A stretch of DNA of 64,000 bases from Minisyncoccota bacterium (GTDB taxonomy: Bacteria > Patescibacteriota > Minisyncoccia > Phycocordibacterales > UBA9973). The stretch's first letter is position 1; every line of letters starts with the position of its first letter. A program made the translations under genes and the position numbers. Below the pieces are notes generated by a model. That model made no database searches. It had not been told where the DNA came from and saw only the letters and a list, made by a program, of their open reading frames with translations. Shown in pieces: positions 2,487 through 63,414 of this stretch. Location: NCBI GenBank assembly GCA_041674285.1, contig JBAYVZ010000002.1, positions 14,600-78,599 on the forward strand, read 5' to 3'.

Positions 2487-3533
2487 TTATTTCTCAATAT
2501 TCAAAATCTTTATGAGTGCGAGTTCTAGTGGTAGCTCTTTGATACTACTGTGTCCAGACATTTGATATGCCTCGAGTAATATTAAAAGTGCACGAGATGA
2601 GATATGCTCTGGCTTTTCGAGGACTAGCTCCCCTAGGAATGTTTTATCCTTTTCTGAGAGGGGTATGATACTCGCCATCTTTGGCGCATAGCGTAGCAGT
2701 AATGCAGCACGCATCTTTACAAGTACCATCTTCATATATAGATGCATGTCACTATTCTGTGCAGAGACTGCATTGATAGCCATATACCCCCGCTCGATAT
2801 CATTGTGTGCGAGAGCTCGGAGAAAGTCATCTACTAGTGTGATATCCGGTGAGCCAGTCACTTCGAGGATTTGCTCCAAACTTATTTTTTTACTTTGTGA
2901 GAATGATATGACTTTTTGTAGAGTAGATTGTGCGTCACGAAAAGCTCCATCTGATATGAGTGCGATGACTTCTGCCCCACCTGCCTCGAGTGTATACCCT
3001 TCTTTCTTTGCAGTACTGCTGACCACATCAGCGAGAATTTTCTCTGTAGGTTTTTTGAAAGTAAAAGTCTGACATCGGGATACGATAGTCTCTGGTACTT
3101 TTGATAGCTCTGTTGTAGCGAGGATAAATACCACATATTCAGGTGGCTCCTCTATAGTCTTTAGCAGTGCATTCCATGCCTCTTTTGTCAGCATGTGCAC
3201 CTCGTCGAGGATGTAGACTTTGTATTTATAATCAAATGGCATAGTACGCACACTCTCACGGATATCACGAGCGTCTTCTATCTTTCTGTTACTTGCTGCA
3301 TCCATCTCGTAGATATCATTTACACTTGTACCTAGTTCGCGGGCGATGATACGTGCGATAGTAGTCTTGCCAGTACCACGTGGGCCGGATAGTAGATACG
3401 CATGAGCCACCTTCCCCGCTGCAAAGGCACCTCGGATAGCATTCACGATATGATCCTGACCTATCACCTCGTCAAAATTCTCGGGGCGGTACTTTGTATA
3501 TAGAGCGATATTTGATTCTTCTTTTTTAGACAT
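2487..3533 (-). CDS. dnaX: DNA polymerase III subunit gamma/tau, short form (clamp-loader ATPase)
   Basis: 348 aa; Walker A GPRGTGKTT, DEVHML, SRC motif (VSRCQ), clamp-loader domains I-III; no tau C-terminal domains. Confidence 0.85.
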   Translation of the reverse strand: MSKKEESNIALYTKYRPENFDEVIGQDHIVNAIRGAFAAGKVAHAYLLSGPRGTGKTTIARIIARELGTSVNDIYEMDAASNRKIEDARDIRESVRTMPFDYKYKVYILDEVHMLTKEAWNALLKTIEEPPEYVVFILATTELSKVPETIVSRCQTFTFKKPTEKILADVVSSTAKKEGYTLEAGGAEVIALISDGAFRDAQSTLQKVISFSQSKKISLEQILEVTGSPDITLVDDFLRALAHNDIERGYMAINAVSAQNSDMHLYMKMVLVKMRAALLLRYAPKMASIIPLSEKDKTFLGELVLEKPEHISSRALLILLEAYQMSGHSSIKELPLELALIKILNIEK

Positions 3534-3650
3534 CCCGTTAGAGATAGGTAATGATTACATTACCGTATCGAGTTAACATATAGTAATAAATACGACTTAC
3601 TTTAAATAATATCCCATAGATAGAAATAGAACAAACACATCTCTAACGGG
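3534..3650 (-). mobile_element. MITE-like element, copy 1 (117 bp, 12 bp terminal inverted repeats) inserted at the dnaX start codon
   Basis: TIR cccgttagagat/atctctaacggg; flanked by (a)cat/aacat duplication containing the ATG; internal hairpin ggtaatg-atta-cattacc; first 70 nt about 90% identical to copy 2. Confidence 0.6.
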
Positions 3651-3671
3651 AACATATTTAGAGTATACCAA

Positions 3672-8493: not shown

Positions 8494-10716
8494 ATGAAAC
8501 TTTTAATCGTAGAGTCACCTTCAAAAGCAAAGACAATTGAAAAATATTTAGACGGCGCATATACAGTCCGTGCATCTGTCGGACATATTCGTGATCTTCC
8601 AAAATCAAACAAGCAGGCTATCGATATCGAGGCTGGATTTGTCCCCCACTATGAGATATCCAAGGGTAAAGAAAAAGTAGTACACGAACTCCAAGAGCTA
8701 GCCAAGAAAGCTACAGACATCACACTAGCGACTGACCCGGATCGCGAAGGAGAAGCCATCGCATGGCACATAGAAGAATTACTCAAAGCTGATAAAAAAA
8801 TAAAGGCGCCGATCAATCGTGCGACTTTTCATGAGATCACAAAAGAAGCAGTAGAAGAGGCTCTCGCACATCCAAGACAAATAGATACAAATTTACGTCG
8901 GGCTCAAGAAGCTCGCCGAGTTCTAGACCGTCTCGTAGGATACGATCTATCAGGTGTGATCTGGAAGAAGGTCCGCTACGGTCTTTCTGCTGGTCGTGTA
9001 CAATCCCCTGCACTGCGCATCATCATGGAGCGCGAGCGAGAGATCCGTGCATTCGTACCAGAAAAATATTGGACACTCGAAGGACTCTTTGAATCAAAGA
9101 AAAAAGTGCAGATGACGCTATCATGTGTCGACGAACCTCGCGATGAAAAAATCGTAGAGAACATCATGAATCTCGGTCAAAAAGAAAAATGGTATGTCAC
9201 AGATCTAAAAGCGAGTGAACAGAAGCGCAGTGCTCGTGCACCATTCACTACATCCACACTCCAGCAGGTAGCATCTACTCGCCTTGGTTTTGCACCTTCA
9301 CGTACTATGCAGGTAGCACAAAAGCTCTACGAGCAAGGTCACATCACATACATGCGTACAGATAGTACAAATGTATCCGCTGTAGCCCAAGCTCAAATAC
9401 TGAAAGTCGTAGAGAAAAAGTATGGCAAGGAGTACGCAGAGGCTCACACATACAAGACAAAGTCCAAGAATGCTCAGGAAGCCCACGAAGCAATCCGTCC
9501 TACTCATGTCGAGAATATGAGTGAGGGATCAAATGAAGAACAAAAGAAATTGTACCGCCTCATCTGGGAGCGTGCTATTTCTTCACAGATGACTGATGCA
9601 AAACTCATGAAGACAAAGATAGTAGCGAATATCAAGAATGGAGAGATCCCAGACTTTACTGCAAATGGCTCACGCGTACTATTCCCTGGATGGCTCGCTT
9701 GTGATACAGATGCCCGTGGTGAAGACGTAGAACTACCCGAGGTTGAAGTAGGCGAAGAATTGAAACTCCTAGAACTTAAAAATACAGAAAAATTCACAGA
9801 GCCACCAAATAGGTACAGTGAAGCCGGACTCGTAAAGGAGCTAGAGGCTCGCGGTATCGGTCGTCCATCTACATATGCATCTATCATGCGCACACTCGAA
9901 GAGCGCGGATATGTGAACAAGGAAGGACGCACGCTATACCCTACAGATACTGGAGATGTAGTGTCTAGTTTTCTTGAAGCAAACTTTGCAGAATACATCA
10001 GCGATACATTCACAGCCGAGATGGAAGATGAGCTCGATGATATAGCCAATGGAGATCGCGAATATGTAAAGACTCTAAAAGACTTCTACACACCATTCCA
10101 AAAAGATGTAAAAGAAAAAGATAAACTAGCCAAGGCTACAAATATGGGCGAGGCTCCAGCGGAGATGAAGTGTCCAAAGTGTGAAGGGTCTATGATTGTA
10201 AAGCTCGCTCGCAATGGCAAGTTTTACTCTTGTGCAAATTACCCAGATTGTGATGGCGCACGAACACTCGAAGGCAATGAATTAGAAGGCCCAAAAGAAA
10301 CTGGTGAACTATGTCCCCTCTGCGGAGAGAAGAAGGGCAAGAGTGGCGGTGGAAAGCTAGTAATCCGACAAGGAAAATTTGGAGCATTCATATCTTGTTC
10401 ACGTTATCCAAAATGTAAATTCATAAAAGAAGACGAGGAAGAGAAGAAAAAGAAAATGTCCGGCGTAAAATGTCCTATGTGTAAAGATGGCGAGATGATG
10501 GAGCGCCGAGGACGATTTGGAATATGCTACTCTTGCTCGAATTATCCAACTTGCAAGAATGCGATAAAGACAAAACCTACTGGAAACATCTGCCCTATGT
10601 GCGACAGTCTGATGATGGAAGGTACAAAAACTATTCCAGAGAGATGTAGTAATAAAATGTGTAAGAATCACAACCCACACAAATTAGGAGACGAAATAAA
10701 ATCAAATAAGAAATAA
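8494..10716 (+). CDS. topA: DNA topoisomerase I with four C-terminal C4 zinc ribbons
   Basis: 740 aa; TOPRIM N-terminus (KLLIVESPSKAKTI), active-site region, then CPxC...CxxC zinc fingers. Confidence 0.9.
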   Translation: MKLLIVESPSKAKTIEKYLDGAYTVRASVGHIRDLPKSNKQAIDIEAGFVPHYEISKGKEKVVHELQELAKKATDITLATDPDREGEAIAWHIEELLKADKKIKAPINRATFHEITKEAVEEALAHPRQIDTNLRRAQEARRVLDRLVGYDLSGVIWKKVRYGLSAGRVQSPALRIIMEREREIRAFVPEKYWTLEGLFESKKKVQMTLSCVDEPRDEKIVENIMNLGQKEKWYVTDLKASEQKRSARAPFTTSTLQQVASTRLGFAPSRTMQVAQKLYEQGHITYMRTDSTNVSAVAQAQILKVVEKKYGKEYAEAHTYKTKSKNAQEAHEAIRPTHVENMSEGSNEEQKKLYRLIWERAISSQMTDAKLMKTKIVANIKNGEIPDFTANGSRVLFPGWLACDTDARGEDVELPEVEVGEELKLLELKNTEKFTEPPNRYSEAGLVKELEARGIGRPSTYASIMRTLEERGYVNKEGRTLYPTDTGDVVSSFLEANFAEYISDTFTAEMEDELDDIANGDREYVKTLKDFYTPFQKDVKEKDKLAKATNMGEAPAEMKCPKCEGSMIVKLARNGKFYSCANYPDCDGARTLEGNELEGPKETGELCPLCGEKKGKSGGGKLVIRQGKFGAFISCSRYPKCKFIKEDEEEKKKKMSGVKCPMCKDGEMMERRGRFGICYSCSNYPTCKNAIKTKPTGNICPMCDSLMMEGTKTIPERCSNKMCKNHNPHKLGDEIKSNKK

Positions 10717-11220: not shown

Positions 11221-11331
11221 CTATATACCTGTCCCGTATTAAATTTTTGATTAATCTAATTTGAGAAGACATAAAAATACAGGACAATCGTCGTATAGGC
11301 AAGAATATTATAAGTAAAATTTTAGTATGGG

Positions 11332-12810
11332 ATGACAACAGATATTAATGAAATCTATAAAATAGCTCCTAGGCTCAATGATGAAGATAAAGCATTAATA
11401 CAAAAGGCTTATGATGTGGCACACAAAGCTCATGCCGGCCAAATGCGCAAAAGCGGTGAACCCTATTTTATTCACGTATTTGCTACAGCAAAAAATCTAG
11501 CCTCCTTTGGTATGGACGCCAAGACTATCGCTGCTGGATTCCTACACGATACACTAGAAGATACAGACCTTCCAGAAGAAGAACTAATAGCCGAATTCGG
11601 CGAAGAAATAGTAAAACTAGTAAATGGTGTGACAAAGCTCGGTAAAGTAAAGTACCAAGGTCATGCACGACACGTAGAATCACTCCGTAAATTCTTTATG
11701 GCCATGGCAGATGACCTGCGAATACTGATTATTAAACTAGCAGACAGACTACACAATGTGCAGACGCTAGAGCACGTACGCGAAGACAAGAGGAAGAGAA
11801 TTGCATTAGAGACTATCGAGATACACGCACGTCTCGCTGACCGCATAGGTATGAACAGCCTAAAAGGTAATCTTGAAGATGCTGCTTTCCCCTACGCCTA
11901 TCCAAAAGAGTATGCTGAGCTTCAAAAAATATTGGCAAATGTAAAATCAGACAATACAAAAGATTTAGAAATGGTCACAGAAGAACTCACAAAAGAATTA
12001 ATCAACCAAAAAATAAACATTGTAGAGATTTCTCGTCGCTCAAAATATAAATATAGTCTTTGGAACAAACTCGTAAAGTACAATATGGACATTGAGAAGA
12101 TATACGATGTGGTCGCGCTCCGAGTGATTGTGAACAACATCGAGGATTGCTATAGAACTCTCGGTATTGTACATAGCATATGGAAGCCTCTACCAGGAAG
12201 AATCAAAGATTATATCTCCACACCAAAGCCAAATGGATACAGATCTCTACACACTACGATATTCACTGGTACTGGTGGAGTGATAGAAGTACAGATACGT
12301 ACACCCGAGATGCACGCCGAGGCTGTATACGGCATCGCTGCACACTTTATATACAAAGAAACTGGTGGCAAAAACTTTACTATCAAAGGTAGCAAAGATA
12401 GAAAATTTGAATGGCTATCTCAACTCCAAGAATTACACAAGACAGTAGATGACCCAGAGAAATTCCTCCAGCATCTACAGATGGATTTATTCCAGGATCG
12501 AATATTCGTATTTACCCCAAAGGGAGATGTAGTAGACCTACCAAAGGGGTCAACGATTATAGATTTTGCTTATGCCATACACTCTGACATTGGGGATCAC
12601 ACCCAAAGTGCATTGATAAACAATAAAAATGCGAGTCTTGGAACTGTACTTTCAAACCGTGACATCATAGAGATTATTGTGAATCCAAATACAAACCCAT
12701 CCTCAAAATGGCTAGAGTATGCCAAGACAAGTATTGCGAGAAAACACATAAATGCACACTTGAAAGAGAATAGCCTCCTCTCAAAATTCAGATCATTCGC
12801 AAAATTCTAA
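11332..12810 (+). CDS. rel: bifunctional (p)ppGpp synthetase/hydrolase, Rel/SpoT homolog (HD + synthetase + TGS)
   Basis: 492 aa; HD hydrolase motifs (HDTLED), RelA/SpoT synthetase domain, TGS domain (FTPKGDVVDLPKGSTIIDFAY). Confidence 0.85.
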   Translation: MTTDINEIYKIAPRLNDEDKALIQKAYDVAHKAHAGQMRKSGEPYFIHVFATAKNLASFGMDAKTIAAGFLHDTLEDTDLPEEELIAEFGEEIVKLVNGVTKLGKVKYQGHARHVESLRKFFMAMADDLRILIIKLADRLHNVQTLEHVREDKRKRIALETIEIHARLADRIGMNSLKGNLEDAAFPYAYPKEYAELQKILANVKSDNTKDLEMVTEELTKELINQKINIVEISRRSKYKYSLWNKLVKYNMDIEKIYDVVALRVIVNNIEDCYRTLGIVHSIWKPLPGRIKDYISTPKPNGYRSLHTTIFTGTGGVIEVQIRTPEMHAEAVYGIAAHFIYKETGGKNFTIKGSKDRKFEWLSQLQELHKTVDDPEKFLQHLQMDLFQDRIFVFTPKGDVVDLPKGSTIIDFAYAIHSDIGDHTQSALINNKNASLGTVLSNRDIIEIIVNPNTNPSSKWLEYAKTSIARKHINAHLKENSLLSKFRSFAKF

Positions 12811-14053: not shown

Positions 14054-14055
14054 CA

Positions 14056-14095
14056 AAAAATCCCACAAGCTACTGCTTGTGGGATTTTTCTTTTT
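14056..14095 (+). terminator. terminator after tRNA-Tyr
   Basis: tcccacaagc/gcttgtggga 10 bp stem followed by a T-run. Confidence 0.75.
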
Positions 14096-17237: not shown

Positions 17238-17807
17238 TTATTGCTTAGGAGCAGTATTTAAATCTACTGGTGTATCTGTCTCTTTTGGATCGGCAGGTTT
17301 TACTTCGTCTGTGATTTTTGATTTTGATTGAATTTGTAAAATCACAAAACCATTTCCATAACTTTTTAAAATCTTTGCTTCGAATAAATCTGAGCCTAGC
17401 ATTACTTTGTATGAATCTTCTTTTCCTGTGAGATTATTCATCTCGATCAAAATTAATCCAGAATCAGAGATTACTACACCTTGGCCCAATGGTCTGATGG
17501 GGTCTATCGCTACGATATCTTTATCTTCCTCACTAGGTGTGACAACTACATAATTTTTATCATATACAGACACCAGCACAGCATTATCAGAAAGACTGAT
17601 TCCTTGCTTCTTTTCTTCAGATGGAACCTGAACGGTGGTCACCTTTTCTATCGTTCTCTGAATTACGTTATTAATAGTCTGAGTGGCGCTCTTTGGCATC
17701 TGATTCATCAGAGTCACAGTTACTATACCAGTAGCGATTGATACAACAAACGTTATTAATAAGGTCAATAATATAAGTTGGGTTTTGTTTAATTCTTTGA
17801 TATCCAT
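17238..17807 (-). CDS. hypothetical membrane-anchored/secreted protein
   Basis: 189 aa; N-terminal TM helix then soluble domain; no family recognised. Confidence 0.5.
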   Translation of the reverse strand: MDIKELNKTQLILLTLLITFVVSIATGIVTVTLMNQMPKSATQTINNVIQRTIEKVTTVQVPSEEKKQGISLSDNAVLVSVYDKNYVVVTPSEEDKDIVAIDPIRPLGQGVVISDSGLILIEMNNLTGKEDSYKVMLGSDLFEAKILKSYGNGFVILQIQSKSKITDEVKPADPKETDTPVDLNTAPKQ

Positions 17808-17926
17808 CCCGTTAGAGATAGGTAATGTTTACATTACCGTATCTTGTTAATATATAGTAAAAATACGACTTTCTTTTTTTATAAACCACCCCGAATTAGA
17901 AAGATAACAAGCGCATCTCTAACGGG
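17808..17926 (-). mobile_element. MITE-like element, copy 2 (119 bp) at the start codon of the 17238..17807 gene
   Basis: TIR cccgttagagat/atctctaacggg; atccat duplicated on both sides; internal hairpin ggtaatg-ttta-cattacc. Confidence 0.6.
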
Positions 17927-17959
17927 ATCCATTAGTTCAGTATAGCATAGCAGTCAAGC

Positions 17960-28769: not shown

Positions 28770-30743
28770 CTAATTAGCCTTCTTACAAGAACTGTTAATC
28801 AACTCCCTCGTCTTTGGTCCTACTAATCCATCACCAGTGACACCAAATTTGTTTTGCATTTTAACAACTATTGATTTTGTATTTGGTCCAAATATTCCAT
28901 CCTCTTTGACTGGTCCGTATCCTAGTCTGTTCATATGAGATTGGAGTATCTTTACATCACTGACTACATTCTTGGTATATGTATTGTACACACCGTCTCT
29001 GGCTCCAGATCTGATCTTTTGAGTTAATGCAGTACACTTTGTATTTGGAATTGTAGTTGGTGTAGGAACAGTGACTGGTACTACGACAGGAGCGGGTGCA
29101 ACTACGACTGATACAGCAGGGGCAGAGTATCTTGAAGATGAAGAAGAACTTCCATATCTTCTAGGGCACGATGATGTAGTAAATGTATCGTCAGATCCAT
29201 TTGTAGTACCTGCTGTGTTAGTAGAGAAAGCACGGTAGTGATATGTAGTATTACATGAGAGTCCTGTGATATCTGCAGTATATGCACCAGTACTGTATGA
29301 ACCTGATTCAGATGATGTAGATCCGTAGCTGTCTGTTAGGCCATAGTGGAATCCACGGGCAGTGTTGTTCTCACCTCCTGTGTTTGTGATGTTACCACCT
29401 AGTGTCGCAGTCTCAGTAGTGATACTGGATGCAGATGTAGTGGAGATTGTAGGGGCACATGCTGTAGTAGTGAAAGTAGAATCAGAGCCATTGGTCGTAC
29501 CTGCTGTATTTGTAGCAAATGCACGGTAGTGATACAGAGTGTTACATGATAGTCCTGTGATATCTGCAGTGTATGCACCAGTACTGTATGAACCTGATTC
29601 AGATGATGTAGATCCGTAACTGTCTGTTAGACCGTAGTGGAATCCTCGAGCAGTGTTGTTCTCACCTCCTGTGTTTGTGATGTTACCACCTAGTGTCGCA
29701 GTTGTGGCAGTTACGCTAGATGAAGATCCGGTGGTGATTGTGGGGGCGACAGTATATGTGATATCTGCGGTCCAAATATTCATATTAGAACTTCCAACTG
29801 CAATTTTTGTTCCATCAGCTGACAAAGCAACTACAGATGAATCTCTAGATCCAGCAGATGTTTGACTTGTCCACGTAGCTCCGCTATCACCTGATATATA
29901 AACATAATCACTATACCCAGATGCTGCAATCTTAGTACCATCAGAAGACATAGCTACCGATGCCCACTGACGACTACCAGAAGAATTACTATTTGTAGAC
30001 CAAGTCACTCCACTATCTGTGGATGTATATATATAACCACCACTATCTGCTGCTGCAATTTTTGTACCATCAGAAGACATAGCGATTGAGGACCACTGAC
30101 GACTACCAGAAGAATTACTATTTGTAAACCAAGTCACTCCACTATCTGTGGATGTATATATATAACCACCACTATCTGCTGCTGCAATTTTTGTACCATC
30201 AGAAGACATAGCAACTGATGTCCAATTCCTATCCCCTGCAGCATTTAAATTATTGGTCCAATTGGCACCACTATCCCCTGAAGTATAAACTTTTTCATAA
30301 TATCCCAAAGCTACTAGCTTTGTACCATCGGAAGATGAATCAACACCTTTCCAATAACGAGAAAATCCGGAAGGTGCCACTGGGTCAGAAACTATCTGTG
30401 TCCAAGTAGCTCCACTATTTGAAGAAATATAAAGATAATCATTATAAGCTGATGCTATCAGTTTTGTTCCATCAGAAGATGAAGAGATTGAATTCCAGTT
30501 TTTACTACCTGAAGAATTTCCGTTTGTAGACCACGTTACCCCACTATCCGTAGAAGTATAAATATAACCAAAAGATACTGCAGCAGCGAGCTTTGTACCA
30601 TCGGAAGAAGAAGCTATGGCATTCCACGATGCAACACCAGAACCTGTATGCTCTGTCCAAGTAGCAGATACAGCAGAAGCTTGCATTGGCAAGAGACTCA
30701 CGACTAGAAACAAGATAGATAAAATTGAATAAAATTTTTTCAT
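28770..30743 (-). CDS. secreted cell-surface protein: BNR/Asp-box beta-propeller + two Fn3-like repeats + C-terminal peptidoglycan-binding domain
   Basis: signal peptide MKKFYSILSILFLVVSLLPMQASA; at least 6 SxDxGxTW Asp-boxes; duplicated 97-aa Fn3-like modules; PG_binding_1-like C-terminus; TGnTATAAT promoter element upstream. Confidence 0.7.
   Translation of the reverse strand: MKKFYSILSILFLVVSLLPMQASAVSATWTEHTGSGVASWNAIASSSDGTKLAAAVSFGYIYTSTDSGVTWSTNGNSSGSKNWNSISSSSDGTKLIASAYNDYLYISSNSGATWTQIVSDPVAPSGFSRYWKGVDSSSDGTKLVALGYYEKVYTSGDSGANWTNNLNAAGDRNWTSVAMSSDGTKIAAADSGGYIYTSTDSGVTWFTNSNSSGSRQWSSIAMSSDGTKIAAADSGGYIYTSTDSGVTWSTNSNSSGSRQWASVAMSSDGTKIAASGYSDYVYISGDSGATWTSQTSAGSRDSSVVALSADGTKIAVGSSNMNIWTADITYTVAPTITTGSSSSVTATTATLGGNITNTGGENNTARGFHYGLTDSYGSTSSESGSYSTGAYTADITGLSCNTLYHYRAFATNTAGTTNGSDSTFTTTACAPTISTTSASSITTETATLGGNITNTGGENNTARGFHYGLTDSYGSTSSESGSYSTGAYTADITGLSCNTTYHYRAFSTNTAGTTNGSDDTFTTSSCPRRYGSSSSSSRYSAPAVSVVVAPAPVVVPVTVPTPTTIPNTKCTALTQKIRSGARDGVYNTYTKNVVSDVKILQSHMNRLGYGPVKEDGIFGPNTKSIVVKMQNKFGVTGDGLVGPKTRELINSSCKKAN
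29150..29730. repeat. 291 bp tandem duplication (2 copies) encoding the Fn3-like modules
   Basis: cacggtagtg anchors at 29231 and 29522; copies about 90% identical. Confidence 0.85.
29936..30225. repeat. 129 bp near-identical tandem repeats (2.2 copies) inside the BNR-protein gene
   Basis: taccatcagaagacatagc... units at 29936, 30065 and 30194; about 96% identical; encode 43-aa BNR blades. Confidence 0.9.
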
Positions 30744-30787
30744 GTAATGGCAATAAATAATTGTAATATACATACTATTATACAATA

Positions 30788-30828
30788 CCCACAAAAAAAC
30801 ACCACGAATGTGGTGTTTTTTTGTGGGT
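30788..30828. terminator. bidirectional terminator (rpsR / BNR-protein gene)
   Basis: acaaaaaaacaccac-gaat-gtggtgtttttttgt. Confidence 0.75.
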
Positions 30829-30829
30829 A

Positions 30830-31030
30830 TTATTTTGCTACGTATGGTAGTAGACCCATGAATCTTGCGCGCTTTACAGCTTCTGCTAGCTTGCGTTGAT
30901 TTTTAGCTGTGACACTTGTGCGTCGGCGAGCCATCATCTTTGCAGCTGGAGACAAGAAACGTTTTAGCAATTCGATATCTTTATAATCGATATGCTTTAT
31001 GTTGTTTGAACTAAAGTAATCTTGTTTCAT
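30830..31030 (-). CDS. rpsR: 30S ribosomal protein bS18
   Basis: 66 aa; [12 protein letters not shown]...[18 protein letters not shown] matches the S18 signature. Confidence 0.85.
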
Positions 31031-31147
31031 CCCGTTAGAGATAGGAAGTCCTGAGACTTCCGTATCTTATTGATTATTGTTAATAATATAGACCTGAGTA
31101 TTTTTTGATACTACCCGATAAAGACATAACGAAACATCTCTAACGGG
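31031..31147 (-). mobile_element. MITE-like element, copy 3 (117 bp) filling the ssb-rpsR intergenic space
   Basis: TIR cccgttagagat/atctctaacggg; tttcat duplicated on both sides; internal hairpin ggaagtc-ctga-gacttcc (compensatory changes relative to copies 1 and 2). Confidence 0.6.
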
Positions 31148-31160
31148 ATTTCATAATTTT

Positions 31161-31610
31161 TTAGAATGGGATATCCTCTACATTGATTGCATCATCTGGG
31201 TATTCGATACTGTCCATTGATGAATCTTCTTTTGGAGCTGGTGCCCCAGGAGTAGAAGGTCTTGGGCTACCAGATGGTGATCCAGTAGAACCAAATTGTA
31301 CACGGTCAGCGATGACTTCAGTGCGATACTTCTTTGTACCAGTGCCTGCATCATCCCAACTTCTTGTCTGCATTCTTCCTTCAATCATAACCTGACTACC
31401 CTTTTTCATGTATTGAGCCACTGTTTCTGCTTGGCGTCCGAATACTACGATATTGTGATAATCAGCAGCTTCTTGTTTTGCACCATTTGCATCTTTCCAG
31501 ACACGATTAGTTGCTACAGAGAAACTACAAACTTTGATTCCAGAAGGCAGTGCCTTTATCTCTGGATCACGAGTCAAATTTCCGATAATAAATGCTTTGT
31601 TTAAGTACAT
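31161..31610 (-). CDS. ssb: single-stranded DNA-binding protein
   Basis: 149 aa; OB-fold N-terminus, Gly/Pro-rich linker, acidic C-terminal tip DIPF. Confidence 0.85.
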   Translation of the reverse strand: MYLNKAFIIGNLTRDPEIKALPSGIKVCSFSVATNRVWKDANGAKQEAADYHNIVVFGRQAETVAQYMKKGSQVMIEGRMQTRSWDDAGTGTKKYRTEVIADRVQFGSTGSPSGSPRPSTPGAPAPKEDSSMDSIEYPDDAINVEDIPF

Positions 31611-31724
31611 CCCGTTAGAAGCAGGAAATGTTTACATTTCCGTTACTTGGTTATTGTTATAATATCGACATAAATAGAATATTATTTATATTTACCCGCT
31701 CTAGCCATAAAAGCTTCTAACGGG
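31611..31724 (-). mobile_element. MITE-like element, copy 4 (114 bp) filling the rpsF-ssb intergenic space
   Basis: TIR cccgttagaagc/gcttctaacggg (perfect 12 bp, variant sequence); tacat duplicated; hairpin ggaaatg-ttta-catttcc. Confidence 0.6.
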
Positions 31725-31733
31725 ATACATATA

Positions 31734-32207
31734 TTATTCTAGCACGAGAGCGTCGATTTCTTTATCAACAGCCTCTTCATCGATCGGAGCCATCTCTGCC
31801 TCTGTCTTTGTGTGCGCTGGCTTGCGGCGTGGACCGTCAGCTTTGTATGCACGCTTTTGAGACATAGTATTCTCGCGAACAGTCTTGATCATGATGTAGC
31901 GGATGAATGTCTCATTCTTGTCCATCATGTCTTTGATAACAACTGCAGCTTCTGTATTTGTCTCAAACTTTACCCAGCCAAAGTATCCATAAGAAAACTT
32001 TTGCTTTTTGTTCATAATACTGCGACTCATTTCATATGCTAGTTCCATCATACGAGGATACTCATCTGAAATAAATGTCACACCTTTTGCAGTTAAAATA
32101 TCTTTAAATGCTGTAACTTCTGCACCTAGATTCTCTTCTGCGATAGAAGGAACCATAAGGTAACCTATCTCATACACACTTGTACGAGCTTTTGTTTCAT
32201 TTTCCAT
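31734..32207 (-). CDS. rpsF: 30S ribosomal protein bS6 with acidic C-terminal extension
   Basis: 157 aa; S6 fold-like N-terminus (YEIGYLMVPS); conserved rpsF-ssb-rpsR order. Confidence 0.65.
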   Translation of the reverse strand: MENETKARTSVYEIGYLMVPSIAEENLGAEVTAFKDILTAKGVTFISDEYPRMMELAYEMSRSIMNKKQKFSYGYFGWVKFETNTEAAVVIKDMMDKNETFIRYIMIKTVRENTMSQKRAYKADGPRRKPAHTKTEAEMAPIDEEAVDKEIDALVLE

Positions 32208-32341
32208 GATTTTTGCGTAAAAATACGCTTATAATTACTACTTTTAAAATACTGTTGTTGTGGACCTTTGTATCCCCGTTTTCAGTACGAGGATAAACGA
32301 CAGTAGAGTTATATTAGCAGAAAAACCCTATTTTGGCAAGG

Positions 32342-32411
32342 CCCGTTAGAAGCCGCCCCCGATAGTAATCGGGTGACTACGGTCACCCTGGGGCGACCTG
32401 CTTCTAACGGG
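32342..32411 (-). mobile_element. MITE-like element, copy 7 (70 bp, GC-rich interior)
   Basis: same TIR as copy 4 (cccgttagaagc/gcttctaacggg); flanked by caagg direct repeat; interior forms nested hairpins (cccga-tagtaa-tcggg, gtgac-tacg-gtcac); not at a start codon. Confidence 0.55.
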
Positions 32412-32417
32412 CCAAGG

Positions 32418-37927: not shown

Positions 37928-39225
37928 TTATCCCAATTTTTCTTTTATATAATCCACGAGTTCTATGATCGCAATACGTTCCTGAGTGCCAGTATCACGA
38001 TCTCGGATAGTCACTGTATCATCAGTCAGAGTATCAAAGTCGATGACTATACACCATGGTGTACCTATCTCGTCTTGTCTTCTGTATCTCTTTCCAATAT
38101 TTCCATTGTCATCCCACATCACACGGCCGAATTCATTCTTGAGCGTGCCGTATACCATACGAGCTTTTTCGATGAGTTCTGGCTTGTTCTTCAATAGTGG
38201 TGACACAGCGCAGACAACCGGTGCTATATGCGGAGCAAATTTTAGATAGCTACGCACCTCCCCATCCTTGTCATCTTCCATATATGCAGATGTCAGCAGT
38301 GCGAGTACGGTACGATCTACACCAAAAGATGGCTCAATAACATGAGGGATAAATTTTTGAGCAGTCTCCTCATCTTGATATGAAAGATTATGAATTTTTA
38401 AATCAAAATCTGTTCTATATGCAAGACCATATAGTTCCTTTCTCCCAAAAGGAAAATCAAACTCAAAATCCACAGTACGTGAAGAGTAGTGAGCAAGGTC
38501 CCCCTCTGCTACTTCTAGCTCGTGAACCTTTGTCATATCGATGCCGATACTATCCATCCACTCTATCATCTCCTCTTTAAAGAAAGTAAAATACTTTTCC
38601 CAATCATCAGGTCGGACAAAATACTCTATCTCCATCTGCTCTATCTCGCGCACACGAAATATAAAATCGCGAGGGGTGATCTCATTGCGGAAAGCTTTAC
38701 CGATCTGACCGATACCAAATGGTAGCTTTGGATGGAATGAGTCTACAATATTTTTGAAGTTTACAAATATACCCTGTGCGGTCTCTGGACGTAGATATAC
38801 AGTCGCTGCACTATCCTCTACTGCACCAATCTTTGTAGAGAACATCATATTAAAATTACGAGCTTCACCTGTCGGAGCACCACAATCATCACACTTGCCT
38901 GATACAGCTAGATTATCTTCACGGAATCTTTTTTTACATTTTGTACATTCTACAAGTGGATCAGTAAAAGTATCCACATGGCCAGAGGCCATCCATACAC
39001 CTGGATGCATCAATATAGCAGCATCCACTTCATACATATCATTGCGAGACGAGACAAATTTCTTTCTCCATCCATCCTTGATATTATTCTTCAACATGAC
39101 ACCTAGTGGACCATAGTCAAATGTACCCGCTAGACCTCCATATACCTCAGAGCCTGATATACAAAGCCTCTTCGTTTGCAGAGAGAGATTATCTTCTCCA
39201 TTAGTTTATCATCGTTTTTATCCAT
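37928..39225 (-). CDS. glyS: glycyl-tRNA synthetase (class II, GlyQS type) with apparent 1-nt frameshift near codon 24
   Basis: N-terminal 32-codon ORF (39130..39225, MDKNDDKLMEKIISLCKRRGFVYQ...) and main ORF 37928..39097 both match GlyRS (RRGFV / SGSEVYGGLAGTFDYGPLG); restoring one C near 39155 joins them. Confidence 0.75.
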
Positions 39226-39342
39226 CCCGTACGAAATAGGAAATGTTTACATTTCCGTATTTAATTATAGTTATCATTAATAATACCGACTAAGTCTATT
39301 ATTAGAAATCCGTAGAAACATGACATACACATTTCGTACGGG
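39226..39342 (-). mobile_element. MITE-like element, copy 5 (117 bp) at the glyS start codon
   Basis: TIR cccgtacgaaat/atttcgtacggg (third variant); atccat duplicated; hairpin ggaaatg-ttta-catttcc. Confidence 0.6.
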
Positions 39343-62073: not shown

Positions 62074-63297
62074 TTATTCATACCTCAGGGCTTCAATGGG
62101 ATTGAGCTTTGAAGCTTTTTTTGCAGGATAATAACCAAATACAATACCAATAGCAGCAGAGACACCAAATGACAACAAGACAGAAGATACAGATACAGTA
62201 GTCTGAAGTATCCCCAACTTGGAAACAAGCGCCGAGACACCCCACCCGAGAGCCACACCTATGACACCTCCGATAAATGTCAGCATTATGGCTTCGATTA
62301 AAAATTGACGATTTATATCACGACGCTGTGCACCGATAGCTTTGCGTAGGCCAATCTCCCGAGTACGCTCGGTTACAGTAGTGAGCATCATATTCATGAT
62401 GCCGATACCTCCTACTACCAATGATATACCCGCAACAGCAGCTAGTAATATAGTAAATGTACCAGTGACAGAGGAAGCTGTAGCTATGATATCTGCTTGA
62501 TTCAAAGTAGAAAAATCTGCAGCAGAAGGGTCAGTAATATCATGACGCGACAACAACAGATTAGTAATTTCTGATTGTACGACAGTAGTGGTATCTGCGT
62601 CCTCTGCACTGACAGAGATACTAGACACATACTCATCCCCAGAAAGAAACTTTTGAGCAGTTGTGACTGGAATAAAAATCATATCATCTGAATTCTGAAA
62701 ACCAGATCCACCTTTTGATCGAGTTACACCTATAACTTTAAAATTAATTTGTTTTATTTTTATGGTCTTGCCGATAGGATCAGTATCTTCACCAAACAAA
62801 TCCACCTGAACGGTAGGACCGATGACTGCAACTTTGGCTGAGCTGTCTACATTTTGATCGGTAATAAATGATCCATTATCTACAAATAAATTACGGACAT
62901 CTGAATACGAGGCAGTGGTACCTACTACTGATGTATTTGTATTTGTACCTTTTGCAGATACTTGATATCGACTAGTAACTTCGGGTGATACAGACCGAAC
63001 CCCAACTATACCGGACTGTATAGCATACGCATCATCTAGAGTTAGACTCTTGGCAGTACCTCTACCACCACTAACTTGAAATCCAGGTCCACGAGCCGTA
63101 CCCGGAGTCACTATAATTAAGTTAGATCCGATTGATTGTATTGATGCCTGAATCGAGGACTGAGCCCCTTGACCGATAGCTGTCATAGCGATTACGGATG
63201 CGATACCAATAACGATACCGAGCATAGTCAGACCTGATCGGATTTTGTTACTGGATAGTGCAATCCATGTCTCTTCTAAAATATCTTTTGTTTTCAT
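62074..63297 (-). CDS. ABC transporter permease (FtsX/MacB family)
   Basis: 407 aa; N-terminal TM, large periplasmic domain, 3 C-terminal TM helices (FtsX domain). Confidence 0.8.
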   Translation of the reverse strand: MKTKDILEETWIALSSNKIRSGLTMLGIVIGIASVIAMTAIGQGAQSSIQASIQSIGSNLIIVTPGTARGPGFQVSGGRGTAKSLTLDDAYAIQSGIVGVRSVSPEVTSRYQVSAKGTNTNTSVVGTTASYSDVRNLFVDNGSFITDQNVDSSAKVAVIGPTVQVDLFGEDTDPIGKTIKIKQINFKVIGVTRSKGGSGFQNSDDMIFIPVTTAQKFLSGDEYVSSISVSAEDADTTTVVQSEITNLLLSRHDITDPSAADFSTLNQADIIATASSVTGTFTILLAAVAGISLVVGGIGIMNMMLTTVTERTREIGLRKAIGAQRRDINRQFLIEAIMLTFIGGVIGVALGWGVSALVSKLGILQTTVSVSSVLLSFGVSAAIGIVFGYYPAKKASKLNPIEALRYE

Positions 63298-63414
63298 CCC
63301 GTATGAAATAGGAAATGTCTACATTTCCGTATTTAATTATATTCATCATTAATAATACCGACTGAGTTTATCTTTTAAATCCGTAAAAAATAAAACAAAC
63401 ACATTTCGTACGGG
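63298..63414 (-). mobile_element. MITE-like element, copy 6 (117 bp) at the permease start codon
   Basis: TIR cccgtatgaaat/atttcgtacggg (T.G wobble on the plus strand only); ttcat duplicated; interior about 80% identical to copy 5. Confidence 0.6.

Follow-up and report, generated by a model that had tools for sequence, protein, structure and literature searches.

In form, the repeats analyzed here resemble the Correia/NEMIS elements of Neisseria and the ERIC/IRU elements of enterobacteria. Like the MITEs of the present sequence, these elements are ~100–150 nt long, bear terminal inverted repeats (TIRs) and a short target duplication, and are dispersed in many copies; they likewise lie within transcription units, where their repeats can form a stem in the mRNA. 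RNase III cleaves the hairpins of the Neisseria Correia elements. However, Correia/NEMIS and ERIC/IRU elements duplicate TA at varied intergenic positions, whereas the MITEs of Patescibacteria (CPR) duplicate ATGRA and lie flush with the start codons of leaderless genes. In addition, the probable coding partner of the CPR MITEs is a 278-bp GIY-YIG element and not an IS, unlike that of Correia/ERIC. Similarly, the REPINs of the REPIN/RAYT system are hairpin units of ~100–120 nt with many copies and compensatory stems, but they make no duplication, share a conserved GTAG head and rely on a Y1 HUH transposase, and most of them are located at the 3′ ends of genes. The PATE and IS200/IS605 elements are inserted 3′ of a fixed tetra- or pentanucleotide, which an internal guide recognizes, and lack TIRs and duplications, whereas the flank of the CPR MITEs varies with the target gene.

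The analyzed sequence, hereafter the window, is a stretch of 64,000 nucleotides from a Minisyncoccota bacterium. An earlier note on its sequence had described seven copies of the repeat in one orientation. All seven were recovered, and a degenerate eighth was added. Scores in bits are those of a covariance model, and the repeats listed are the flanking direct repeats.

3534..3650, minus strand: MITE copy of 117 nt (89 bits), start-flush with the gene for a DNA polymerase III AAA+ subunit (2487..3533); repeat ATGT at 3530-3533 and 3652-3655, extra T at 3651, extended -10 box TGGTATACT 6 nt 5′ of the upstream ATG
11233..11331, plus strand: degenerate eighth copy of 99 nt (21 bits, E = 0.016), start-flush with relA/spoT (11332..12810)
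17808..17926, minus strand: MITE copy of 119 nt (91 bits), start-flush with the gene for a 189-aa protein (17238..17807); repeat ATGGA at 17803-17807 and 17928-17932, box TGCTATACT 6 nt upstream
31031..31147, minus strand: MITE copy of 117 nt (93 bits), start-flush with rpsR (30830..31030); repeat ATGAAA
31611..31724, minus strand: MITE copy of 114 nt (84 bits), start-flush with ssb (31161..31610); repeat ATGTA
32342..32411, unstranded: short family member of 70 nt with the inverted repeats common to the family and a G+C-rich interior; 5-bp repeat CCTTG at 32337-32341 and 32413-32417
39226..39342, minus strand: MITE copy of 117 nt (91 bits), start-flush with glyQS (39225 downward); repeat ATGGA
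63298..63414, minus strand: MITE copy of 117 nt (87 bits), start-flush with the gene for a MacB/FtsX permease (62074..63297); repeat ATGAA

The direct duplication of 4–6 bp that had been claimed for each of the seven copies was located in every case, and it is present as a single copy at empty sites. Perfect 12-bp TIRs, as also claimed, were found in six copies; the claim failed for the 63298 copy, which has one mismatch (CCCGTATGAAAT versus ATTTCGTACGGG). Six of the seven copies are indeed flush with the ATG of real genes, for which Pfam identified a DNA polymerase III AAA+ subunit, S18, SSB, class-II GlyRS and a MacB/FtsX permease, in addition to the 189-aa protein. Apart from its insertion, glyQS shows a frameshift near 39130. 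The 70-nt copy is the exception: it borders the rpsF promoter on its upstream side instead of adjoining a start codon, and its plus strand resembles a subfamily of the form GCCGCG...CGCGACCTGC. The relA/spoT copy has lost both the upstream ATG (now ACCTGT) and the subterminal hairpin, but it retains the terminal stem, with two G.U pairs and one compensated pair, and has a TATACT box upstream. Beyond the window but close to it, the contig contains a ninth copy. The motif CCCGTWMGA occurred 14 times, against 0.6 occurrences expected by chance. Over a 71-nt block, the window copies were 61–87% identical to one another; thus, they are not assembly duplications, which the earlier note had named as a possible refutation. 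At the gathering threshold, Rfam 15 matched only four tRNAs and none of the repeats, and a permissive E-value added only chance-level matches.

The family was then followed in Patescibacteria/CPR genome assemblies by means of a search pattern that did not include ATG. At least 110 family loci were found, and among the matches listed, 102 of 105 long copies were directly followed by the ATG of a long ORF, so that the start-codon association noticed in the window is general. As far as sampled, the family is confined to Patescibacteria; no match was found in a viral contig collection that was searched for phage carriage. The target logo, ATGRA, corresponds to the first five bases of the gene, the fifth being A in 69 of 72 sites, and the upstream and downstream repeats agree at positions 1–5 but not at position 6. 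Many of the host genes are leaderless, with a TGnTAnnnT -10 box 6 nt 5′ of the ATG, and -10 hexamers peaked 6 nt before the upstream ATG (26 of 87 copies). Thus, the original promoter and ATG remain upstream of the insertion, while a new ATG is placed flush with its right end. A promoter within the element was rejected, since none of these 87 copies contained a -10-like hexamer at a usable distance from the gene ATG or, indeed, any -10 hexamer inside the element. Nor was a Shine-Dalgarno sequence found in the element.

A preference for ATGRA, even combined with the lethality of insertions within ORFs, accounts for only part of the excess at start codons: the window contains 30 ATGRA sites at starts and 22 in intergenic positions, yet ~97 of 105 copies among the matches listed lie at starts. 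Orientation is similarly biased, with 102 of 105 MITEs among the matches listed lying in the sense of the gene (p = 1e-26), while a 75-nt subfamily was antisense in 7 of 7 cases. Since the ends are symmetric, simple cut-and-paste fails to account for this bias. Avoidance of AUG on the sense strand was ruled out as its cause, because ATG is commoner on that strand (175 versus 89).

Comparison with orthologous loci supported mobility. Empty sites had a single repeat (ATGGA or CCTTG) with a -10 box 6–7 nt before the ATG, indicating that the copies are true and recent insertions with a target duplication of 4–6 bp (mode 5). Moreover, insertions were polymorphic between strains with 99–100% identical Ssb. 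The rpsR site is empty in L114 and L115 and holds an identical copy in strain L117, whereas the ssb site is empty in L117, whose Ssb is 100% identical, and also in L114, L115, L112 and L113. The site upstream of rpsF (32342) is empty, with a single CCTTG, in L111, L114 and L117, and the empty glyQS site of L111 reads TGTTATAAAGTAATAT-ATGGAT-ACAAAC. No copies at all were found in 58 kb of close relatives. At the orthologue of the 189-aa gene, an element was also present in L099, L105 and L044, that of L044 belonging to a different subfamily in the opposite orientation. Tandem arrays of the element were separated by spacers of exactly ATGAAT. In the filled ssb allele, ~25 nt of the ancestral rpsF-ssb spacer are missing. 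Two operon-internal filled sites have lost spacer in this way, such that a -10 box or a stop codon immediately precedes the upstream ATG; this suggests that translation initiated there matters.

The ends of the element form a longer stem than had been described. The upstream repeat is separated from CCCG by one extra base, which is T except in the 70-nt copy, where it is G. This base is complementary to the first base after CGGG; thus, the stem is really 13–14 bp and takes in the A and U of the gene's AUG. TIRs of 12–14 bp were perfect in ~90% of >110 copies. The compensatory changes that the earlier note had seen in the TIR stem and in a 7-bp hairpin recurred over 104 copies from many genomes: pair 10:128 was AU in 51 and GC in 49, and pair 113:118 was CG in 68, GC in 28 and UA in 8. 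Fold z-scores of the elements ranged from −3 to −7. However, the interior sequence was unconserved across copies and gave no consensus helix, with only a weak 3-bp helix within one subfamily, and members of 63–65 nt are plain hairpins. Known self-cleaving ribozymes (hairpin, hammerhead and others) were rejected, given that the core motifs considered (e.g. the hammerhead CUGANGA) are absent, that Rfam gave no match and that the 63–65-nt members are plain hairpins.

A coding relative with the same ends was found at 1336-1613 of L016, where inverted repeats as in the MITEs enclose a GIY-YIG ORF (PF01541, E = 2e-16). This full-length element is 278 bp long and has a sole gene, for a GIY-YIG nuclease of 86 aa that belongs to the UPF0213/YhbQ type. 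Its ends, (T)CCCGTTAGAGAT...ATCTCTAACGGG(A), are the same 12–14 bp TIRs as those of the MITEs. The nuclease ORF can start either at the duplicated upstream ATG, running through the left repeat (MNPVRD..), or at an internal ATG. Its C-terminus, FLSLTG, is encoded by the right repeat, and the TGA that closes it overlaps the regenerated host ATG as ATGA. Each of the copies in L120, L127 and L128 has a length of 278 nt, lies behind a promoter-ATGAAT and overlaps the host gene through ATGA. More than 3000 homologues were found, nearly all of them either 86 aa long with a terminal FLSLTG or 95 aa long with MNPVRD as the N-terminus. The MITEs and the full-length element share ~23 nt of the 5′ end, ~20 nt of the 3′ end, the block TTTACGGAAA and the target, and fragments of the ORF are still present in MITE interiors; the subterminal hairpin of the MITEs is absent from the coding partner. 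An A at position 4, which the TGA/ATG overlap needs, was found in 37 of 42 full-length copies compared with 48 of 80 MITEs (p = 0.0016). No full-length GIY-YIG copy was present in ~83 kb of the window's contig (the window and the adjoining ~20 kb). The element, including its repeat string CCCGTTAGA, had no description in the full-text literature searched, a coverage outside which most subscription journals fall. Thus, the 278-bp element is apparently undescribed, and the earlier remark that the repeats correspond to no described element or Rfam family agrees with both searches.

The short upstream ORFs of the MITEs can be read in the same light. They open at the upstream ATG and are non-conserved, as previously stated, and their MxPVR beginning corresponds to the N-terminal extension of the nuclease. 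The left-repeat variants GTT AGA and GTA CGA both read as Val-Arg codons. A conserved peptide was ruled out, since the ORFs range from 1 to 41 aa and share only the repeat-derived PVR. In-frame read-through in the style of the Rickettsia palindromic elements was also ruled out, as every frame contains stops and the lengths, which include 117, 118 and 119 nt, have no period of 3 nt. The upstream ATG itself was lost in 17 of 104 copies, a decay no slower than that of repeat positions 4–5; together with the relA copy, in which the stem is kept, this argues against dependence on the short ORF.

Taken as a whole, these observations are best explained if the repeats are MITEs of a 278-bp GIY-YIG mobile element that is widespread in Patescibacteria (CPR), a reading that we consider likely. 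The repeats are small and gene-less, with TIRs, duplications with corresponding empty sites, and dispersed polymorphic copies. Since the 278-nt elements share TIRs, subterminal sequence and target with them, the window copies are internally deleted, non-autonomous derivatives on this explanation. The mobile-element interpretation of the earlier note is thereby upheld, through the empty sites, the polymorphism between near-identical strains, the ATGAAT tandem arrays and the coding partner with the same ends. The GIY-YIG protein would mobilize both full-length and deleted copies. The nuclease is probably structure-selective, acting on a hairpin or cruciform formed by the repeats, which would account for the inner repeat positions that drift yet stay complementary. 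On the other hand, it could be cargo and not the mobilizing enzyme, given the hydrolytic chemistry of GIY-YIG nucleases and a duplication length typical of DDE transposases. Host genes behind full-length copies would be translated by termination-reinitiation at the ATGA overlap. In MITE-bearing genes, ribosomes may load at the 5′-terminal upstream AUG and translate the short ORF over the left arm, thereby melting the 13–14 bp stem in which the A and U of the true AUG are paired. Translation would end in the A+T interior, which is rich in stops, and reinitiation or unmasking would bring the true AUG into use.

Alternatively, the copies could act as processed leaders, in which an RNase III-like endoribonuclease specific to double strands or hairpins cuts the base of the stem and frees a leaderless mRNA that begins with AUG, the flush stem thus making insertion tolerable. 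The AUG-flush stem of 102 of 105 copies among the matches listed fits this proposal, as do its length and high stability, the cleavage of Correia hairpins in Neisseria, the lack of a Shine-Dalgarno sequence or promoter in the element, and subfamilies that lie at gene starts in either internal orientation. The dispensable upstream ATG also fits, above all in the relA copy, whose stem has G.U and compensatory pairs. However, an apparent excess of G.U over A.C mismatches (27 versus 12) was mostly due to the constraint that the search put on the last two G's; without those positions the count was 15 versus 12, and another count gave 8 versus 7. G.U and A.C mismatches were therefore equally common, giving no sign of selection for RNA over DNA pairing. 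Furthermore, both arms of full-length copies are coding and lie 278 nt apart, indicating that the repeats are not primarily for RNA processing, and the operon-internal filled alleles, with the upstream ATG right behind the -10 box or stop, also speak against it. We therefore regard a processed leader as unlikely.

Another explanation is an ordinary IS-derived MITE, moved in trans by a conventional (e.g. DDE) transposase, with the GIY-YIG ORF as a passenger or secondary invader, as homing genes are in introns. Duplications of 4–6 bp are typical of DDE transposases, and their variable length together with TIRs is the classical signature of these enzymes. GIY-YIG nucleases hydrolyze DNA, with neither strand transfer nor transposase activity known among them. 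Other small GIY-YIG ORFs, in L096 and L005, lie between quite different palindromes, suggesting that the ORF moves between carriers. Nevertheless, a search of ~0.9 Mb of CPR sequence revealed no IS-sized partner with such inverted repeats. FLSLTG, which the right repeat encodes, is the C-terminus of thousands of GIY-YIG proteins, and many have a repeat-derived PVR near the N-terminus; the full-length element is fixed at 278 nt, uses the target of the MITEs and has left fragments of its ORF in them. An IS origin is, in our judgment, improbable.

It is also conceivable that the copies have been exapted as regulatory RNAs, that is, as structured cis-acting leaders under purifying selection that mask the AUG, stabilize the 5′ end through a hairpin or provide the site of a common factor. 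Orthologous copies were far more conserved than neighboring coding sequence. The glyQS copies of the window and L060 differed at 2 of 118 positions, compared with 18.5% in the flanking coding sequence (p = 1e-8), and two other orthologous copies were 97% and 98% identical where the adjacent coding sequence was 81% and 88% identical, respectively. Identity jumped sharply at the element borders. Such conservation is unlike decaying selfish DNA. The strong orientation bias, the covarying subterminal hairpin that the coding partner lacks and the pairing of the A and U of AUG in the stem point in the same direction. However, the similarity of orthologs could instead be due to copies that recently spread laterally to one and the same favored target, and regulation agrees poorly with presence or absence between strains of identical Ssb, the lack of copies in 58 kb of close relatives, functionally unrelated host genes, and an interior without conservation, consensus helix or Rfam match. 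Thus, exaptation as a general explanation seems quite unlikely. As for the cis-regulatory leader masking the start codon that the earlier note had offered as its other option, the paired A and U of the AUG and the highly conserved orthologous copies on one side, and the equal numbers of G.U and A.C mismatches on the other, leave it as no more than a possible reading.

Lastly, a single-stranded DNA hairpin element of the REP/REPIN-RAYT or IS200/IS605 (PATE) type, moved by an HUH tyrosine transposase, is very improbable: the ~118-nt size, hairpin ends and compensatory stems do resemble REPINs, but it is largely refuted by the true duplications at empty sites, which HUH elements do not make, and the repeats have no fixed flanking tetranucleotide, no GTAG head (their head is CCCGT) and no Y1 transposase gene that we could see, nor was a RAYT gene seen in a non-exhaustive look at the window. 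Guide pairing as in IS200/IS605 was rejected, as no column covaried with the variable target base (maximum mutual information 0.12, below the 95% shuffle value of 0.16).

Returning to the MITEs and their 278-bp GIY-YIG element, we tentatively propose, as a serious possibility that falls short of being probable, that the latter is a new kind of autonomous element, one of the smallest known. It would comprise a single 86-aa structure-selective nuclease between TIRs and would live as a parasite of the start codons of leaderless genes, borrowing the host promoter and first AUG, encoding both ends of its protein in its repeats and restoring the host start by the duplication and the UGA/AUG overlap. 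The 118-nt copies of the window would then be deletion derivatives that far outnumber it, and some of these may have been adopted as conserved 5′ leaders. If this is true, the element is designed around the initiation codon of leaderless genes, with TIRs that also serve as the initial and final codons of the nuclease, a duplication that regenerates the start and a stop/start overlap that returns the ribosome to the host gene. By this novel route, a transposon could enter essential genes (ssb, rpsR, dnaX-like, glyQS) and leave a minimal-genome host alive. The reading would also point to what part of the very large, uncharacterized UPF0213-like GIY-YIG family does in the cell. The element accounts for annotation errors that recur in CPR genomes, where 95-aa "MNPVRD" proteins are called and gene starts are misplaced. 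Furthermore, the insertions provide natural presence/absence markers between CPR strains, as well as a natural experiment on translation that starts behind a stable hairpin in bacteria without Shine-Dalgarno sequences.

Comparison with other known systems places the element further. Integron attC sites, which have RYYYAAC/GTTRRRY cores, follow cassette ORFs on the 3′ side and make no duplication, were rejected by inspection, since GTTAGAG and GTACGAA do not fit GTTRRRY and the elements lie 5′ of housekeeping genes with duplications. Among GIY-YIG proteins, the structure-selective nuclease Slx1 falls into one group with the UPF0213 family (YhbQ/YazA; PMC7017083). The partner ORF matches the Pfam GIY-YIG domain as these UPF0213/YhbQ/YazA/Slx1 URI nucleases do, but it has no PHD/zinc-finger domain. 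Its closest solved structure is that of the UPF0213 protein BH0048 (1ZG2), with weak similarity (E = 5e-4). The partner ORF has repeat-encoded ends, whereas YhbQ/YazA have no described mobile context in the literature searched. The GIY-YIG homing genes (T4 seg, the I-TevI type and the in-frame ORFs of fungal mitochondria) are like the 278-nt element in that the nuclease is the sole product and the host gene stays intact. However, homing genes have a large DNA-binding domain and one cognate site, without TIRs or duplication, while the 278-nt element has a bare 86-aa catalytic domain, TIRs and duplications, many unrelated target genes and deletion derivatives; the GIY-YIG domain was present in the full-length relatives only, and the window copies have no such ORF. 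Lastly, the Rickettsia palindromic elements, the introner DNA transposons, and T4 gene 60 and the mitochondrial "byp" elements are similar to the CPR element in that the architecture of the insertion itself renders it harmless. The CPR element differs from these in that it is neither spliced nor read through in frame, and nothing points to ribosomal bypassing. Whereas the duplicated target of introners is a splice site, that of the CPR element is the start codon.

The seven copies described in the earlier note were recovered at their coordinates in a single shared orientation, and the claimed flanking direct repeats were present in all of them. They are listed here as they read on the strand that is sense for the downstream genes, the minus strand (genes named by Pfam match), together with a decayed eighth copy matched by a covariance model built from the family.

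3534-3650, minus strand, 117 nt, flanking repeat ATGT, before the gene for a DNA polymerase III AAA+ subunit
11233-11331, plus strand, decayed eighth copy, flush with the relA/spoT ATG
17808-17926, minus strand, 119 nt, flanking repeat ATGGA, before the gene for a 189-aa protein without a Pfam match
31031-31147, minus strand, 117 nt, flanking repeat ATGAAA, before the S18 gene (rpsR)
31611-31724, minus strand, 114 nt, flanking repeat ATGTA, before the SSB gene
32342-32411, 70 nt, flanking repeat CCTTG
39226-39342, minus strand, 117 nt, flanking repeat ATGGA, before the class-II GlyRS gene (glyQS)
63298-63414, minus strand, 117 nt, flanking repeat ATGAA, before the MacB/FtsX permease gene

The covariance model search placed a ninth copy elsewhere on this contig, beyond the window. 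The motif CCCGTWMGA occurred 14 times in the window, compared with 0.6 expected by chance. The 12-bp inverted repeats, previously regarded as perfect throughout, were perfect in six copies, and the copy at 63298 had one mismatch. On the minus strand, the long copies showed the layout upstream sequence, ATGxA, T, CCCG...CGGG, ATGxA and gene. The base preceding CCCG can pair with the one that follows CGGG, and the terminal stem thus extends to 13-14 bp and includes the A and U of the gene AUG. The predicted fold consisted of this stem, an A+T-rich interior and a 7-bp hairpin adjoining the 3′ arm, and folding of each copy far exceeded that of shuffled sequence (z-scores of −3 to −7). The window copies have all the structural features of a MITE.

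The window also contained other repeats. A 674-aa secreted protein (28770-30794, minus strand) carried tandem ~43-aa repeats (SSDGTKL... units, 129-nt period) and two ~97-aa repeats (291-nt period), which account for the families D1, D2 and D4 of the repeat finder. A perfect 33-nt direct repeat, TTCATATATTTATTATATATTATTTTTAATCTA, was present at 588-620 and 1478-1510, 890 nt apart; each copy contained CAT and lay 5′ to a minus-strand gene, and the repeat may have arisen by duplication of a promoter/start region. Two similar G+C-rich palindromes between A-runs and T-runs (319-357 and 14055-14093; AAAAAATCCCCACAGG...CCTGTGGGGATTTTTTTT) look like bidirectional intrinsic terminators, and one adjoins tRNA-Tyr. 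Beyond the window, the same contig carried a '23S rRNA intervening sequence protein' gene (PF05635; L129, 17611-17964) away from any rRNA gene.

The family has a coding partner. Another locus (L016, 1336-1613) contained a 278-nt element that has the inverted repeats of the MITEs and an ORF with a GIY-YIG catalytic domain (Pfam E = 2e-16), whose product had >3000 homologues in a metagenomic protein collection. Almost all homologues were 86 aa (MFYTY...RFLSLTG) or 95 aa (MNPVRDxxV plus the same 86 aa) long. The N-terminal extension corresponded to the upstream duplicated ATG and the left repeat (CCC GTT AGA, read as PVR), the left-repeat variants GTT AGA and GTA CGA being synonymous. The C-terminal FLSLTG was encoded by the right repeat, and the TGA stop overlapped the regenerated host ATG. 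This architecture is shown by the sequences. Further copies of the coding element were located before a 67-aa membrane protein (L120), before a CtpB-like peptidase (L127 and L128) and between purL and purQ (L123, with the variant left repeat CCCATTAGA at its start). Those in L120, L127, L128 and L016 were exactly 278 nt each, and the first three showed the order promoter, ATGAAT, element, ATGAAT, with the ATGA overlap. MITEs and full-length elements shared the first ~23 nt (including the GTTATG block, where the nuclease starts), the last ~20 nt and an internal TTTACGGAAA block, indicating that the MITEs are deletion derivatives. The A at position 4, needed for the stop/start overlap, was found in 37/42 full-length elements versus 48/80 MITEs (p = 0.0016), which fits selection for stop/start coupling only where the ORF is present.

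The nearest solved structure to the nuclease was the UPF0213 protein BH0048 (1ZG2; E = 5e-4); YhbQ/YazA have been grouped with the structure-selective nuclease Slx1 in a review (PMC7017083). Small GIY-YIG ORFs with 36-44% identity to the partner ORF were also located between unrelated palindromes, in L096 (about 5-250; CCCCGCCCCCTA...TAGGGGGCGGGG) and L005 (2208-2462, minus strand), the latter flanked by duplicated hairpin repeats that resemble a tRNA 5′ end and adjoin a tRNA gene. Inverted-repeat-flanked GIY-YIG cassettes may exist in several families.

The copies are true and recent insertions. Orthologous genes elsewhere, with orthology inferred from N-terminal protein similarity, often lacked the element and showed a single ATGxA directly behind a −10 box (L101 versus L039; L056 versus L017; reciprocal pair L091/L098). 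At the glyQS site, the relative L111 read TGTTATAAAGTAATAT-ATGGAT-ACAAAC versus ATGGAT-element-ATGGAT in the window. A single CCTTG was present at the site of the 70-nt copy in L111, L114 and L117. The ssb and rpsR sites were empty in strains with 97-99% identical Ssb; L117, whose Ssb is identical, had the rpsR copy and lacked the ssb and 70-nt copies, and three relatives with 84-95% identical Ssb had no copy in 58 kb. Upstream and downstream repeats matched at positions 1-5 (2-4 mismatches per position, 80 copies), but not at position 6, and the reconstructed target was ATGRA, with A as the fifth base in 69/72 sites (p = 1e-20). Sequence comparison shows present-day insertion polymorphism and insertion at ATGRA with duplication, by which the upstream promoter and ATG are kept and an ATG is regenerated flush with the right repeat. 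In the window, 30 ATGRA sites lay at gene starts, 22 between genes and 418 inside ORFs, and about 97/105 copies were observed at starts, exceeding the expectation from these counts (p = 3e-15). Target preference and the lethality of intra-ORF insertion therefore account for only some of the start-codon bias. Off-start insertions used CCTTG at a promoter edge (window), TAAA (L070) and ATAAG on the purL stop codon (L123).

At ssb and rpsR, both operon-internal sites, the filled alleles were short of 17-25 nt of the ancestral spacer just before the upstream ATG (window 31725-31745 and 31148-31165 versus L114 1020-1090 and 1505-1565, and versus L117). The TGCTAGAAT −10 box is now 5 nt before the upstream ATG at ssb, and at rpsR the ssb stop codon is 7 nt before the upstream ATG; the glyQS and 70-nt sites showed no such deletion. 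L111, a close relative (Ssb 95% identical), had no CCCGT element and carried, in both the rpsF-ssb and ssb-rpsR spacers, a different ~87-nt palindromic insert of TTTCTAG/CTAGAAC repeats (9914-10000 and 10454-10541). Hairpin insertions appear to favour these spacers.

A genome scan was then employed with one genome per species and the hairpin plus 3′ arm as query, leaving out the ATG. It returned at least 110 loci; because the query demanded the hairpin and these loci are the matches listed, subfamily proportions are biased. All matches listed were in Patescibacteria assemblies (Nomurabacteria, Paceibacterota, Wolfebacteria, Komeilibacteria and some labelled Saccharibacteria), and no copy was found in a viral contig collection. 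The family is large and, in the sample examined, confined to CPR bacteria. All sequences were metagenome assemblies; the window was 99.97% identical to ENA contig ERZ27247358 k141_2193188 over the 3.45 kb compared, and its closest named relative was a Nomurabacteria assembly. Among the matches listed, lengths clustered at 114-122 nt (mode 118), with a minor class of 74-82 nt. An ATG directly followed 102/105 long copies, and nearly all such ATGs opened long ORFs. Other subfamilies, including 63-65-nt plain hairpins, had the terminal stem alone in common.

Arrays of two or three elements were separated by exactly ATGAAT. Triple arrays occurred in L067 (3834-4208) and L005 (5899-6278), and the middle L067 unit had a 5′ arm of CCCGTACGAAAT type and a 3′ arm of ATCTCTAACGGG type, a mismatch that suggests recombination between adjacent elements. 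Two intergenic hairpins in L053 (2049-2062 and 2821-2834, plus strand) had loops reading CUCUAACGGGACUG, which equals the element 3′ arm and is complementary to the 5′ arm, followed by a common TTCTCAAGYACTAC motif; they had no Rfam match and no further occurrence among the 116 loci compared.

Some copies were conserved in place. The glyQS copy differed at 2/118 positions between the window and L060, versus 18.5% in the flanking 1 kb of coding sequence, and identity jumped at the element borders. Similarity was 0.90-0.93 in the 40-80 nt on each side and about 0.80 farther out. Element and neighbouring coding sequence were 97% versus 81% identical in L009/L095 and 98% versus 88% in L002/L052, and the nearest paralogue of the glyQS copy in the window's own genome was only 82% identical. 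This pattern would reflect either strong purifying selection in place, and hence an acquired host function, or recent lateral spread of near-identical copies into the same preferred site. The window glyQS itself (39098-39225 and 37928-39097, minus strand) lacked 1 nt that is present in the intact L060 orthologue (CAGGCTCT versus CAAGGGTCC) and is thereby divided into a 31-aa and a 389-aa ORF. The break may come from misassembly, or glyQS may be a pseudogene or an essential gene with a frameshift.

The gene-sense orientation was observed in 102/105 long copies, and the 75-nt subfamily was antisense in 7/7. Opposite-strand pairs existed within single loci, indicating that orientation tracks the gene and not the replication strand. 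Since the ends are symmetric, this bias calls for either a mechanism that inserts in one orientation or selection acting on transcripts. The covariation noted earlier was real as to compensatory changes: across 104 copies, they occurred at five positions of the terminal stem (e.g., AU in 51, GC in 49) and at two or three of the hairpin (CG in 68, GC in 28, UA in 8). However, G.U and A.C mismatches were about equal (8 versus 7 in the 104 copies; 15 versus 12 in a second count, minus two positions fixed by the search pattern itself), so that selection for sense-RNA pairing is not demonstrated, and RNA and DNA are not told apart.

Upstream of most window genes, an extended −10 box of the TGnTAtAAT type lay 5-9 nt from the ATG, and there was no Shine-Dalgarno sequence. 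In element-bearing genes, the box preceded the upstream ATG. Among 87 copies from many genomes, TANNNT hexamers peaked sharply 6 nt before the upstream ATG (26/87; 16/26 with TGn), and none was at a usable distance within the element. Because of this distribution, transcripts most likely start at or near the upstream ATG and run through the element.

From the sequences, we propose that the GIY-YIG protein mobilises both full-length and MITE forms. It may recognise the conserved outer 9 bp and a hairpin or cruciform geometry. Such recognition would account for inner repeat positions that differ between MITE subfamilies but keep their complementarity, and for the retention of the FLSLTG version by nearly all coding copies. 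Host genes behind full-length copies would be translated by termination-reinitiation at AUGA. Behind MITEs, ribosomes might start at the 5′-terminal AUG and translate a leftover short ORF across the left arm, which might melt the stem and expose the true AUG. The spacer loss at ssb and rpsR, which puts the upstream ATG behind a −10 box or the ssb stop, argues for this step. However, it is weakened by the loss of the upstream ATG in 17/104 copies. This ATG decayed no slower than other duplicated positions, and the old relA copy has lost it and still has a stem, in which G.U pairs and one compensatory pair occur. The main rival to melting by short-ORF translation is that the hairpin is removed endonucleolytically, recreating a leaderless mRNA.

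Among known systems, the window copies fitted neither attC sites nor any Rfam family, and they differ from REPIN/RAYT and IS200/IS605 hairpin elements in their target duplications and in showing no guide covariation. The partner shares only its catalytic domain with free-standing GIY-YIG homing endonuclease genes; unlike them, it has no DNA-binding domain, carries inverted repeats and duplications, and is located at many unrelated genes. We found no description of such an element in the full-text literature searched, which leaves out most subscription journals, and an earlier description is possible. In our view the element is a MITE whose partner, target and expression logic are unusual, and the partner has a substantial chance of being a minimal transposon of a new class.
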